Assembly: GCA_030324005.1 (NCBI GenBank)
Contig: JARDVH010000132.1
Location: 69,050,040 to 69,114,039 of the forward strand
DNA: 64,000 nt
Direction of reading: 5' to 3'
Source: Negaprion brevirostris
Lineage: Eukaryota
Every line of letters begins with the position of its first letter. The first letter of the stretch is position 1. This document shows, piece by piece, positions 18,664-51,596 of the stretch. The notes beneath the pieces are model-generated. The model saw only the letters and a program-made list of their open reading frames with translations. It made no database searches and had not been told where the DNA came from. A program made the position numbers and the translations under genes.

Positions 18664-18919
18664 GGGAGGCGGTGGTGTAGTGGTATTTTCACTGGATTAG
18701 TAATCCAGAGACCCTCGGTAAGATCTGTGGACCCGGGTTCAAATCCCACCATGGCACATGGTGATATTTGAATTTGATTTAAAATTTGGGATTAAAAAAT
18801 TCTAATGATGACCATGAAACCATTGTCGATTGTCAGAAAAACCCATCTGGTTCATTAATGTCCTTTAGGGAAGGAAGTCTGCTGTCCTTACCCAGTCTGG
18901 CGTATATGTGACTCTAGAT
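18664..18919 (+). mobile_element. tRNA-headed SINE (family sharing its 3' tail with the 11150-13165 LINE), cut by gap
   Basis: A-box ggtgtagtgg, B-box ggttcaaatcc, core ctggttcattaatgtcctttagggaaggaa; other copies at 20861, 36228 and 57475. Confidence 0.85.
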
Positions 18920-39441: not shown

Positions 39442-42400
39442 TGTTGTACGTGTCTGCATGCCATTGTAATGCAAAGGCGCTCAGCCAAGCAATGTGGGAC
39501 TGCAGAATAGCACCATCCACAGTCACATGGCAATATACGCAGAGAATATTTTAAAAGGAACCTACCTGCATGACAGCAGCACCAAGCATGGCAGTAACTG
39601 GGATTTATACATTGTTAAGGATTATCAATAAATGGCTCATGTTTAAATATGCAAATCTGAAAGCTTCATCAGTGAGATACAAAATTATCCCACAACACAT
39701 CATGGTGACTAATGATGGTATGAAAGGTGACATTTGAATGATGTACCAAGAACGGAATCCCAAGATATGAAAAACTAAAAGCAGCTGACTAGAGAAACAT
39801 GCACGTAGAAAGAAAAATTGAACAAATAATTGATGAGCTTCAGTGCAGACTTGGAAGTTGAGAAATCCACCAAAGTGGAGGTCCATTGCAGGATCCTGAA
39901 TGATGCAGATGAAAGAACCTGGTTAGATCACAAGACAGGTGAGTAAAAGTACAAAAAAAAGATTATGGGATAGATTGCAATCTCATGGTCCAATTTATCA
40001 TAAGACACCTGGGAGTAAACTACAATGTCATCCAGCACCATATAACAAAAGATGCTTATACTAAAGTGAAAAAGGAGAAATGATGAACAAAAGAATGGCA
40101 CTGTAGAAAGAAACATGCAGAGTTAAAACAAAACTTTTCAAAACTATTTTAGATAAGACCCTTGATTAGAGGGATCATGCCAAACAGAAAAATATGTGGA
40201 AAATTTAGAGAAAACTGACAGCTGCAGACAACTGGAGTAAAAAATATAGTTACTGCACAGGTGGCCTGAAAGGGCAATGACATTTAAAGCAGTAATTACA
40301 AGAAAAAAAAGCCACGTACTGAAAATTAGAAATGCCAGTTCCATATCAAATAAGGAAATGGCTAAGCCATATCCAAGTGTGGGAATCTTAAAGACAATTT
40401 TCAGTTTACAGAGAATTTTGGGATTAAATAAGGAATCAGAAGAAGTGCAAGTTGGCAAGTTTTTATTCATGTTTGGTTCTTTTATGGGTGAAGTACTCCA
40501 CAGCCAACATATTGATCAATACTCATAACATTTTGTAAGGTGTTAAAAGACTTTGACAGATACTTTAAACTCCAACTAAGTTGTGGAGAACACAGATCCT
40601 CAAAGAAGGTCTAGAACATCCCTGATTAAGTGCCATATTCAACAGATGATTCTAGAAAGAATGGTAGAGAAGCCCAGCGAGAGACAAACAGAAGATCCCA
40701 GAATGAGGGAGACAATATTCAAGTAAACCACAAGATGGTTGTCAACCATGTCAGTGCAATGTAATACATGAGCTAAAGAATTTGATGTAGAAGAGAGAAT
40801 GGCTGAGAAGCAGTTGGCTTAAAAGTAGAGCTTTTTGATAATGTTGACACTGCTGATATTGCGACAGCAGATGACAGAGCAGAGTAAGCAGATGGCTGTG
40901 AATGAAGGGAAGCCACGTAAGGTAACTCTGAAGAAGAAAAATGTGCCAAAGTAAAATTTAGCTGTTATACAAGGAAATATTCACATCAGCGCTAAACTGG
41001 AAACTTTGAAGATTCAACCTGAGCATTTATCTTTGAAAAAGCACAATAAACTGAAGTCTTCAATGAACTAAGATGTGTAAGGTTGGAATAAATAAATTAG
41101 AGATGACAAAAAGCTATCCCAGAAAATAATGACTCTCGGTTCTACAGCTGACAAATCAAAGCGAGAGCAAAGTAAACTCAACCAGAATTCAGTAAGACAA
41201 AATAGCAGGTAGAAAAGGCATGCAAAGAAGTTGTGACCTTGAAAGATTCCTTGCAATATCAATATGTAGCTATAGAAAAACAGAAGCTAAAAAGACATTG
41301 TTCCAACACAACTTTTGCTGAAGTGATGTTCAATCAGTAGCAACAAAGTGATGCATTGAAGGCCAGAGCTAGTTGGCAAGAGTTCAACAAGAAAATAAGC
41401 AGTTAATAGGACTCCTGATTGTCCTTCAAGATCAAATGTAAAAGGAATGAGTAACCATTCAGTAATATAAAAAATGAAGATTACTTTAATAGCAGTATGG
41501 AAAAACAGCAGAAGAAACTCAAGGAGATATTGCTGAATTACAGGAAAACTTAAGATGAAGCCAGTGAGTGTCACACAGAAAGGGAAAACATGTTGAAAAA
41601 CCTTCACAAGCCAGAAAGATCTCACAAGTCAAAGTTTGTTCCTCTGGAAAATTATGAAGAGAAGCAAAGTGAATTTAATGTCACTCTGAACAAACTGAAG
41701 AACCAGATGGAAGAGCAGACACAGCAATATTCCAAGAGGAAGCTGAAAGCTATAAGAAAAAGACCGAAGAACCAGCTGAATTATCAACAATGAGGCATTG
41801 AAAGGAAAAGCCACAGATCTTTCCAAGCTTTGAGTGGATAAAGAAGCCAGGACTAGCACAATTACAGAACTGAAAGAAGTTGAGACTTCATCAGAGACAG
41901 ACCTAGCCAACAGTGAAACCAAAATAAAAGACAAGAACAATGTTCTGTTGCTGACAGGGAAAGAAAAGACAGAAATAAGATTGGAAAATGTGAATCTCAA
42001 GTTGAAGTGCAAGCTGCAAGAGGGAGAAAAGGTACGGGATGTTTCAGACATGCTGAGAAACACAGAGCCGAATGAAAAGACGCACGTGCTTGCAAACCAA
42101 ATTGAAAATAAAACAGCAAACAAAAGCTTGGCTGAAATTATGAAACAGGTGGAAATGCAGACTCCTTTTGTGAAATATCAACATCCAGCAAGAACATGGC
42201 GGATGCCACAGAAAAAGAAAATTCAAGTCCTGACCAGGAGTGAACAGAATACATATCCCCTTTGGGAGGAATGGGACAAACTCATAATGTTGGAAAAAAG
42301 CAGAGAGATTGTTAGTAAACAGAAATGCAACAGTAAAGAGTGCAAAAAGCGAATGAAATGGAAATAATCTAGTACCATTACCAACCCTCCAAACATGACA

Positions 42401-42688
42401 TTCCAAGAAATAGAATAAGGGTAAAACCTCAAGAACATCTGAAAAAAGTAGCAAGTCAAGATTATATCATAAATGGCTATATTCCATTTTTCTTTTGAAA
42501 AGAAAGGTGATGTTGTATGATCTTGTATGTCCCTGCATGCCATTGTAATGGAAAAGTGCTTAGCAGAGTAATGGTTAATGTGGGACTGGGGAATAGCACT
42601 GCCCATGGTATGACGTATACAGTCACATGAAATAGACTCAAAACAGTCTGAAAGGAACCCATCTGCATGGAGCAGCACCATGCATGGC
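39442..42688 (+). mobile_element. Non-autonomous LTR retroelement: 5' LTR 39442-39697, PBS ~39703-39721, PPT 42497-42510, truncated 3' LTR 42511-~42688
   Basis: 5' LTR starts TGTTG, ends CAACA and contains AATAAA; it is followed by TGGTGACTAATGATGGTAT (cf. tRNA-Ser PBS TGGCGACGAGGATGGGAT). gaaaagaaaggtga precedes a second TGTTGTA that aligns with the first (ctgcatgccattgtaatg, aatgtgggactg, cagtcacatg, aaaggaacc, gcagcacca.gcatggca). Confidence 0.7.
41000..41793 (+). pseudogene. Decayed UACA-like (UACA/RAI14/ANKRD24/ANKRD35 family) coiled-coil coding fragment inside the LTR element
   Basis: 41497-41733 reads MEKQQKKLKEILLNYRKT*DEASECHTE...KSKFVPLENYEEKQSEFNVTLNKLKNQMEEQTQQYS vs recalled human UACA MRKVQDSNAEILANYRKGQEEIVTLHAE...KVKYAPIVSFEECERKFKATEKELKDQLSEQTQKYS; collinear upstream hits QYVAIEK (QYVPVKT) and QEF. 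Confidence 0.7.
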
Positions 42689-43871
42689 AAACCTATAGAA
42701 CAATAGCACCCACCAACCTAAGGAAGAAAACAGCAGCCTTAGCATTACATACACCCTCCTCTGATTGAGGAATTGTTCCTTTAATCATTGCTTCATTCAA
42801 GCCCAATATCATAAGGCCTAATGTGCAGTGTACATGTAATGCATAGCAGACAAACAGTAGTGTCAACCCTACCTCAGTTAGATTGGCATTGGTTTATAAA
42901 CTTCATTAGTAGTTTAACAAATCCTGGACTTCAGGGTTGTGACCAAGTTCACTTTGCTCCTTAGACCCAGATTCACTCTACTTTATAGTCTATGATTGAA
43001 CCCAGGACAATTTCTAACTATCTGACCTGAGGAGTACACCGCACATCATCGGTGTACCTTGGATGATCAGGGCTGGTAAGAAATAAAATTGCAGAAAGGA
43101 AACCAGATGGATTAAAGTAATCACTGAATTTGGTTGGGTGTCCCCCACTGGCGTGACCTGGATCTCCTGCCAGTTATCCTGACAGTGCAGGAACACTATA
43201 TGCAGCCTGATCTTTCTGAAGGTTCTATTTGGTGCTTTCCCATTCAAAAAATGATTTTGTTTCCCATCATTTAGCATGGGCTTGTGACCTGTAACATTTA
43301 CAAGAATCATTTCCCCAGCAGAAAATGAATTCTGCTTGCCAGCATTTTAGCACAGCTAGATTATATATGGACTAGCACATGAGCTGAACTGCTTTGTAAT
43401 GGGCATTTTGAAGTATCCAAGTAACCTCAAATTTCAAAAACCAAGTTAGAATAGCTCATACATAACATACCATATTCTTCAAACATGATTCTAGACACTT
43501 CATTTTTTTTTTAAACTACATCACTTGAGTTACAGATACTTTACAAATAAATACTTCAAAATAGAGAAGTTAAAAATTTAGAACAGTTTGTTTTTGTCCA
43601 GTCTGTCATCTTTATCCCCCTGGTTTCTCTACTTATTTTCTTTTTTTGTTTACATTTTACTTTTTGTTGGAGAATCTACTTTTCTAATAATGTTTGTATT
43701 ATATTAAATATTGCTTTGCTATATTTATTTTCTTTATTTTCTACATTTCTAGGAGTCCCAAGAAATAATATCCAAGATGGTACTTACAACAAAAACGTTT
43801 GCTGTGATTAATCAATTAAAGATTGACCTGCAACTAGACTGGACTGGGTAATGTTTGATATGTGTTAAAAG

Positions 43872-43977
43872 ATACGGTCACATAAAATAGACTCAGAACA
43901 GTCTGAAAGGAACCGACCTGCATGGAGCAGCACCATGCATGGCGAACCTACAGAACAATAGCACCCACCAACCTAAG
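43872..43977 (+). repeat. 106-bp direct duplicate of 42617-42722 (part of the 3' LTR plus the sequence after it)
   Basis: About 7 mismatches counted by eye over 106 bp. Confidence 0.9.
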
Positions 43978-50126: not shown

Positions 50127-50539
50127 AGGGGCCCGATTTTACCAAAAAAAGGGTGTGAAGTCGCAGTAAATTCGGGCGTCAGACCTTTAACACGATCTGC
50201 ACCCGAATCCGAGCAGATTGCGACTTTACCGACACCCGATTTGGGTGCAGATCTGGTCAGTGCCCGAATCAGGTGGCCCGACAATATAAATGTATTAGCA
50301 TGTATTTAAATCGATTTAATGAACTGCGCACCCAACTCGACTGCCAAACCCCCACTTTACTGCCTTTGGGTCTGATCCGGATCCACGCTGTAAACGATGT
50401 GCAAAATAAAAATATGAAACCGATTTTTATTCTGCAGGGGAACCTCCAAAGCCCATCCTCCTCAACCATCCTTCGCAGACCACCAGCTAACCACTCCGGC
50501 AGAACCGCTCCCCCACCACCTCCCCCCCGCCCGGGACTG
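50127..50539 (+). mobile_element. CpG-rich young MITE-like DNA element, cut by gap
   Basis: ggggcccgattttacc start, internal inverted gatctgcacccgaatc / gatttgggtgcagatc; high CpG retention. Confidence 0.55.
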
Positions 50540-50639
50540 NNNNNNNNNNNNNNNNNNNNNNNNNNNNNNNNNNNNNNNNNNNNNNNNNNNNNNNNNNNNN
50601 NNNNNNNNNNNNNNNNNNNNNNNNNNNNNNNNNNNNNNN

Positions 50640-51596
50640 ATAGATAGAGTGAACAGTGGGAAGCTTTTTCCCAGGTTGGATGCGAAAATCACGAGGGGTC
50701 ACGGGCTCAAGGTGAGAGGGGCGAGGTATAACTCAGATGTTAGAGGGATGTTTTTCACACAGAGGGTTGTGGGGGCTGGGAATGCACTGCCAAGTAGGGT
50801 GGTGGAGGCAGACACGCTAGGGTTGTTTAAGATGTATCTAGATAGGCACATGAGCAGACTGGAGATGGAGGGATACAAAAGAATGTTCCAGTTGAAGATC
50901 AAGAGCCTCAGCACGTTCCTGGGAATTAACAGATTCCTATGGGCTGTCCAACAAACTTTATGGTTCACCTTGTCACTTACGTTGGAGCTATTGGGGATCT
51001 TCCATCACTGTCTGTATAAGCTGTTGTATGTTTATTGATGTCTCCTTTTTACATCCACAGGCGATTCGGTCCGCCTTATTGGCCAACAAGGGGCATACAT
51101 GCGGTGGGTCATGCGAGGGCTGCTCTTGGATGTTGCTTCGAGAGTTGCCTACTGCTTCACGCCGTTAGTGTACGCTTAAACTGGACCAACTGACGGGCAA
51201 CACGACAGCTCAGTGACTATCACTGTTTGCCGTGCAGTTACAGGGACCCGGGTTGGATCTCCGGCTTGGGTCAATGTCTGTGGGAGTTTGCACATTCTCA
51301 CCGCGCTTGCGTGGGTTTTCTCCGGGTGCTCCGGTTTCCTCCCACACCCCAAAAACATGCTTTTTAGGCTGATTGGTGTTAATAAATTGTCCCTAAATTA
51401 GACCTCTCTTAATCTGGCGCACATATAATTCTCTAAATTTGCACCCCTTTATTGTGGAGTCCACTAGATGTAGACAAAAGTCGTAGGTAGAAGGACTTGA
51501 ATAAGGCACTCACTGAGTGTTAAAATGGGCAGCACAGGCTTGTGGGGCCAAAGGGCCTGCTTCCCGTGCTGTGCTGTTCTGTGTTCTTTGTTCTTT
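50640..51596 (+). mobile_element. CR1 ORF2 C-terminus, long 3' region and embedded HE1-like SINE (copy 2)
   Basis: LFPRLDAKITRGHGLKVRG...FFTQRVVGAGNALP..VVEADTL..FK.YLDRHM continues ~55 codons to a stop at 51038, then HE1-like core ~51194-51390 and tail. Confidence 0.88.

Follow-up and report, generated by a model that had tools for sequence, protein, structure and literature searches.

A dead LTR element from an old family of sharks that carries a piece of the host UACA gene

Positions 39442-42689 of the window (the whole stretch of DNA analysed here, 64,000 nucleotides of Negaprion brevirostris contig JARDVH010000132.1) hold an LTR retroelement with part of a host gene inside it. The locus raises the questions of what this element is, how the host piece came to lie between its LTRs, and whether that piece was ever of use to it. 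A preliminary description, made from the sequence alone, viewed the locus as a dead, non-autonomous, Gypsy-derived shark element with a UACA cargo, and all of these attributes hold in the present analysis. The window element is dead and belongs to an old LTR family of sharks. Taken as a whole, the following account is highly probable: the family is Gypsy-derived and pol-less; a gag start, linker, 1.55-kb UACA piece and tail likely made up one frame; UACA was likely captured once by a template switch; and the family was likely copied by a helper.

The outline of the element is that of an LTR retrotransposon (Table 1). The 5' LTR had been described as 256 bp long with a CAACA end. The LTR itself is real and contains the expected AATAAA motif, but the LTR/primer-site boundary, set by alignment of the family copies, lies 5 nt further, and the LTR ends in ...ACACATCA. 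The diverged and truncated 3' LTR was also correctly recognised; it aligns to positions 3-152 of the 5' LTR (E=3.5e-16), and the purine tract ahead of it is present. The primer-binding site is degenerate in the window copy, as had been noted, and scores 8/15 to both tRNA-Leu and tRNA-Ser, which is too decayed for typing. Across the first 15 nt of this site in 14 copies, Leu is the better match in ten and Ser in one, with three ties; the best two copies (L032 and L090) match the 3' end of the genome's own tRNA-Leu at 14 of 15 positions. The tRNA-Ser primer proposed earlier is thus replaced by tRNA-Leu(AAG/UAG), the type to which the family's primer site belongs by sequence match. Only one locus, L032, has both LTRs complete (276 and 263 bp, 78% identical), and no target-site duplication was evident there. 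In four other copies (L018, L016, L026 and L103), a primer-site-like motif follows the LTR mapped as 3', which suggests tandem or nested elements. A 106-bp local duplication (42617-42722 and 43872-43977, 93% identical) takes in the final stretch of the truncated 3' LTR plus the adjoining 33 bp. Elsewhere in the window, open frames at 31314-32051 (-) and 50418-51038 (+) are, by motif, presumably LINE (CR1/L2-type) ORF2 fragments, and ARAGORN calls a tRNA-Thr(AGT) at 18669-18757, which may be a tRNA-derived SINE.

Table 1. Parts of the UACA-carrying element, with positions counted from the first nucleotide of the window
Feature	Position	Strand	Remarks
5' LTR	39442..39702	+	261 bp, TG...CA ends, AATAAA at 39627-39632
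Primer-binding site	39703..39720	+	decayed here; tRNA-Leu(AAG/UAG) type, by sequence match, in better-kept copies
Leader	39721..40320	+	39721-39960 common to family; shared stops in all three frames; no assigned source
Gypsy gag N-terminal remnant	about 40325..40580	+	~85 codons, decayed; remainder of gag absent
Linker	40581..40906	+	variable 24-nt tandem repeat at about 40630-40706; one frame nearly without shared stops
Captured UACA big-exon piece	40907..41875	+ (sense)	exon nt 853-2403 minus 102-nt and 450-nt internal deletions
Family tail	41876..42367	+	in frame with UACA piece; ends at stop common to 76% of aligned copies
Polypurine tract	42497..42510	+	directly before 3' LTR
3' LTR, truncated	42511..42689	+	70% identical to 5' LTR

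The origin of the middle of the element was established by comparison with the host gene. The host UACA exon (contig C164) is a stop-free coiled-coil exon of 905 codons (2,715 nt) with splice signals; it shows 92% identity to Mustelus UACA and 75-83% to that of other sharks, values by which the genome falls among the carcharhiniforms, and it belongs to a multi-exon gene whose upstream exons match the ankyrin part of Mustelus UACA. The window element is collinear with this exon at 72% DNA identity over 641 nt (E=4e-90). The by-eye assignment of 41497-41733 to the UACA coiled coil, with collinear matches back to about 41000, was therefore sound, and the UACA-derived part extends over the whole interval listed in Table 1. 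An open reading frame at 41834-42367 had been left unassigned; its first 14 codons are in fact UACA, and the remainder is the family tail, which indeed has no assigned source. The suggestion that the fragment came from a cytoskeletal and apoptosis regulator stands as to its UACA origin, and nothing ties the piece to either function. In the window copy, the piece has many private stops and frameshifts. A search of 1.84 billion proteins with this decayed frame returned four matches only: one ray UACA, two basking-shark proteins annotated as 'uncharacterized', and one unnamed protein. The last three look like family copies, so all four are either UACA, which had been predicted as the best match, or proteins resembling the family.

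The ends of the captured piece are common to the family. Exon nt 229-848 match the host only (1/1 candidate), and matches to the 3' part of the exon end at about 2403. Among 87 projected loci, 33 start at exon nt 850-869 and 44 end at 2400-2419, the others being truncated or rearranged; both junctions are sharp in the copies aligned (10 and 12 copies). The capture junctions are thus fixed at exon nt 853 and 2403 in the family copies.

The interior had been described as a UACA segment in place of recognisable pol, and a gag remnant had been overlooked: a truncated gag is present ahead of the linker. Only its N-terminal ~85 residues are kept, and a complete gag (capsid and nucleocapsid) is absent. 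In profile comparison, the family gag part aligns to gag residues 4-88 only, and it scores 95.5 against a 30-row profile of related gags, with 21.3 as the best of 20 column shuffles. Its profile also matches the N-terminus of a gag-protease ORF of the same genome, L169 (hhalign 97.6%, E=3.9e-12, an E-value inflated by the fact that L169 was first chosen by similarity to the family, with a fragment from one copy as query). This ORF (L169:6039-7397 (-), G000:C73) is a stop-free frame of 452 codons with two visible CCHC knuckles and a DTG protease motif; we take it and its relatives to be 'Mag-type' Gypsy elements. It gave a sub-threshold PNMA match (E=6e-4) and only weak zinc-knuckle matches among PDB sequences (E 0.07-0.8); its single-sequence fold (pLDDT 47.5) had no Foldseek match and is uninformative. 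RT/RH lies downstream in 3 of 20 L169-related gag loci, and none of nine short ORFs behind related gags had a Pfam match. Pfam likewise gave nothing significant for four window ORFs, the gag-part alignment or the tail alignment; nor did PDB sequence searches with the UACA piece or the gag-part profile. The gag-part alignment had no match among the longer proteins of a large protein database, which is weak evidence. Two observations concern other Gypsy-like frames of the genome. The L169 frame stands among heavily decayed relatives, with decayed sequence downstream, and could be a young or kept gag gene. At locus L167 (3348-7946 (-), G000:C7762), an open Gypsy frame of 1,533 codons has SCAN, a zinc knuckle, and integrase ahead of RT/RNase H, a domain order that we take to be Gmr1-like.

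The leader, linker and tail showed no match to gag when compared with the 30-row profile, and none to UACA or to the other sequences searched. A by-eye idea that the linker and tail are a degenerate gag C-terminus was rejected, the scores being within those of shuffles, and so was the tail as the UACA C-terminus (E=0.21). Searches for a host source of the linker or tail found only family-like matches in the genome (150 scored each), and the tail ORF had no match in the large protein database, again weak evidence.

The family is large and decayed. When the genome was searched at the DNA level with the interior, 686 candidates came up; 40 of them were scored, and all of these match at 68-78% (the window itself excepted). 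A protein search with the UACA-like stretch gave 713 first-look candidates; 143 were scored and all 143 match. Subtracting the host exon and, by eye, four double hits leaves about 138 loci as a lower bound. The family LTR was found within the 10 kb fetched around 39 of 77 UACA-bearing loci. A multi-copy, LTR-flanked family had been predicted, and with at least about 138 loci the interior is clearly not single-copy. Many copies are split by later insertions. Near the UACA piece, no stop-free frame in 77 loci is longer than 198 codons, and the window insertion also occurs in two other organisms, 2-3% divergent and with frameshifts; the family copies seen are therefore dead. Fetched matches with apparent long open frames contained no N-free frame of 200-250 codons, the host exon excepted, and no intact copy of the family was found. 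In one family copy, a 227-codon frame (L088:6037-6717 (+)) lies on the opposite strand between two LTR matches; we take it to resemble a G-protein-coupled receptor.

A single frame of about 690 codons likely ran through the gag piece, the linker, the UACA piece and the tail. In each of the intervals 40240-40640, 40660-40960 and 41800-42365, one frame is without a stop common to half of the copies, the other frames having 5-16. Of 12 copies, 8 have an in-frame spacing between linker and UACA piece (mode 78 nt); between UACA piece and tail, 8 of 17 do (mode 81 nt). Between gag and linker, only 6 of 20 copies are in frame by raw spacing; the commonly held alignment columns there consist of 84 nt and additional 24-nt repeats, and the indels appear to be private, so the in-frame reading of this junction is taken from the alignment columns. 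When the copies were divided into groups, one shared stop emerged within the linker in lineage A, and another within the tail in the remaining lineages.

Whether this frame was kept by selection was judged from substitutions and deletions. The preliminary description had proposed a search for one long ORF and a dN/dS test; the former yielded the likely chimeric frame, and the latter gave no sign of amino-acid constraint. Within subfamilies of 35, 13 and 8 copies, at a divergence of about 0.35 and with 31 unassigned loci left out, the nonsynonymous/synonymous ratio comes to 0.85-0.97 once CpG-prone sites are removed, with intervals that include no difference; with CpG-prone sites kept, some intervals exclude zero. 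Selection on the chimeric frame is suggested by other features. The frame was open over about 690 codons drawn from at least three sources, the five modal deletions common to copies (102, 282, 450, 126 and 210 nt) are all multiples of 3, the modes at the linker/UACA and UACA/tail junctions are in frame, and no nonsense change occurs among the 13-19 lineage-shared amino-acid changes of each grouping. Thus, the gag-UACA frame may have been translated and selected, either because its RNA was stabilised or marked for packaging, or because the capsid fragment and coiled coil co-assembled with helper particles. We regard this as a tentative possibility, on the unlikely side. Microhomology-matched pairs in the host exon give an in-frame deletion 51-82% of the time, so that microhomology alone would produce the five deletions with a joint probability of about 0.1; each of the no-nonsense tests reaches only P=0.2-0.4; the substitution ratios are those given above; and comparisons both within and between lineages gave no third-position excess for gag, linker or tail. 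Slightly more doubtful still is the idea that a vertebrate Gypsy lineage gave up most of gag and the whole of pol in exchange for a host coiled coil and, through one deletion and rearrangement after another, preserved a translatable frame of capsid fragment and UACA since the fusion helped its packaging or transport. No amino-acid constraint was seen on the chimeric frame, and no purifying selection on the captured protein. Most likely, the UACA cargo rode along as a passenger, with the frame open in the replicating lineages and its residues drifting near-neutrally. Had selection kept the frame open, the family would show that a non-autonomous element can need a chimeric frame fit for translation.

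Three subfamilies are distinguished by deletion and rearrangement. Subfamily A, which includes the window element, is without 102 and 450 nt of the UACA piece; subfamily B is without 126 nt, and some of its members are also without 282 nt; in subfamily C, the last ~80 nt of the UACA piece and part of the tail lie ahead of nt 930-2266. The 282-nt deletion pairs with both the 450-nt deletion (L027, L041, L042) and the 126-nt deletion (L110, L116), which indicates that the subfamilies recombined or that the same deletion recurred. Only three non-CpG changed residues are common to all three subfamilies. Two relatives, L171 and L182 (and L168 by translation), carry only a short 3' UACA piece right after the linker, and their gag is, by eye, closer to intact Gypsy gags. 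These relatives, and the position of the short piece in subfamily C, would fit a stepwise capture in which a short piece (exon nt ~2326-2403) came first and homologous switches then added the long pieces of A/B and C. This course is unlikely, however: nt 853 and 2326 share a TGAA(A)GGAA-type match, so one deletion would give the short form, and the three subfamilies have changed residues in common and fall into one clade. A single capture is likelier. No UACA-free pre-capture element was found; one candidate, L188, is also without the linker and was set aside as a deletion derivative.

We infer that the single capture was from mRNA. The loss of introns cannot show this, because the captured piece lies wholly within one exon. 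With both junctions inside that exon, no splice junction is spanned, and across 130 kb of the host gene the window element has no match in any other UACA exon or in an intron or UTR; the piece could thus have entered as DNA or from unspliced RNA. This is improbable, since the sense orientation, the position between LTRs and the partial copying fit the template-switch model in the relevant part of Tan et al. (2016; PMC5131818), and the family LTRs have no match in the host UACA gene region. That the interior is merely an ordinary gag or low-complexity coiled coil can be dismissed: it is A-rich and K/E/Q-rich and four window ORFs drew nothing from Pfam, but its collinear, fixed-ended similarity to a single-copy host exon is far above noise.

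The capture is old. Galeomorph-derived residues occur in the copies (e.g. 7, 11 and 6 informative columns against 1, 0 and 1). At lamniform-derived columns the copies are mostly ancestral (derived 1, 0 and 0 against 18, 15 and 20), as they are at carcharhiniform-derived columns (derived 1, 1 and 2 against 6, 6 and 4). FastTree, with the 24 best-covered of 56 copies, placed the copies as one clade at the lamniform/carcharhiniform/orectolobiform base, a clustering to which long-branch attraction could add. The basking-shark protein P0122 (Cetorhinus maximus XP_078395215.1) has the same 150-codon deletion relative to that species' own UACA, and the same tail start. The capture is accordingly placed on the galeomorph stem, before the lamniform/carcharhiniform split, which is Jurassic; the copies are about 0.35 substitutions per site apart. 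P0122 and P0123 (XP_078401457.1) are the two basking-shark proteins annotated as 'uncharacterized'; both look like stop-free pieces of family copies, and the family thus misleads annotation.

Propagation of the family would have depended on other elements. As the preliminary description had noted, the window element contains no protease, RT or integrase: tblastn with the genome's own IN, RT/RH and capsid-CTD/NC/PR queries found none. Among 116 loci examined, five family loci have capsid-CTD or pol matches within 10 kb, and in none of them was the match shown to lie between family LTRs. L015 has IN and RT fragments on the strand of its linker, 400-1,250 nt upstream of it; no 5' LTR was seen there, and the order, with IN ahead of RT, suggests that the fragments may belong to a different element. 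An autonomous Gypsy sharing the family's LTR and primer site had been anticipated. None of 20 related gag loci has the family LTR or leader, and a single one, L251, was noted to have the same Leu-type primer site. In the proposed mechanism, UACA RNA was co-packaged in a virus-like particle in an ancestral galeomorph that predates the lamniform/carcharhiniform split. Reverse transcription, presumably primed by tRNA-Leu, would have switched template twice, into and out of UACA, likely in a single event, and the resulting family was then likely copied in trans by the enzymes of an intact Gypsy helper.

In sum, the family is a dated, high-copy case of a Gypsy-derived element that captured and multiplied vertebrate host coding sequence, likely as a gag fusion, and its fixed junctions and nested deletions can be used as markers for galeomorph shark relationships. 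The family may already bear a repeat-library name. A literature search found no publication on UACA captured by a retrotransposon, by Gypsy, or as a shark retrocopy. Within the genome, the nearest comparison is with the gag-protease Gypsy elements (L169 and relatives), which have a homologous gag N-terminus; unlike the family, these have retained the C-terminal part of the capsid as well as zinc knuckles and protease, and 0/20 share the family LTR. In acutely transforming retroviruses, gag-onc fusions join a truncated gag in frame to a host fragment, with pol lost and replication dependent on a helper. The shark family similarly has a truncated gag joined (likely in frame) to a host coding fragment without pol, but it is not a retrovirus, and the host part gave no sign of a selected activity.

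The kind of event is already known. LTR-mediated retrocopies in animals, as treated in the relevant sections of Tan et al. (2016; PMC5131818), are partial, often in-frame copies of host sequence that can re-transpose. The shark family agrees with them in having partial host sequence between LTR-element parts, on the sense strand and likely in frame, and in acting as a non-autonomous element whose secondary copies have common switch points. The retrocopies described there are young and low-copy, whereas the shark family is old, exceeds 130 copies, falls into several subfamilies whose deletions and rearrangements keep the frame, and has a likely gag fusion. Maize Bs1, as presented in the same sections, is likewise a non-autonomous LTR element with host exon pieces, common switch points and a chimeric frame. 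Bs1 has 1-5 copies, three parental genes and a reported hybrid protein, whereas the shark family has one identified parent (UACA), two unassigned stretches and a chimeric product that is at most putative. The crocodilian ERVs that captured KIT-ligand and nectin3, in the corresponding part of Chong et al. (2014; PMC4299795), are also ancient vertebrate LTR elements with host coding cargo, found across species and with lineage-specific deletions. They are, however, retroviruses that took up whole ORFs, occur in 6-9 copies and show purifying selection. The shark family, by contrast, is Gypsy-derived, has an internal exon piece where most of gag and the whole of pol would stand, and gave no sign of purifying selection. 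Measured against these portions of the two papers, the shark family stands apart in its Gypsy origin, its likely gag fusion, its copy number, its age and its frame-keeping rearrangements.
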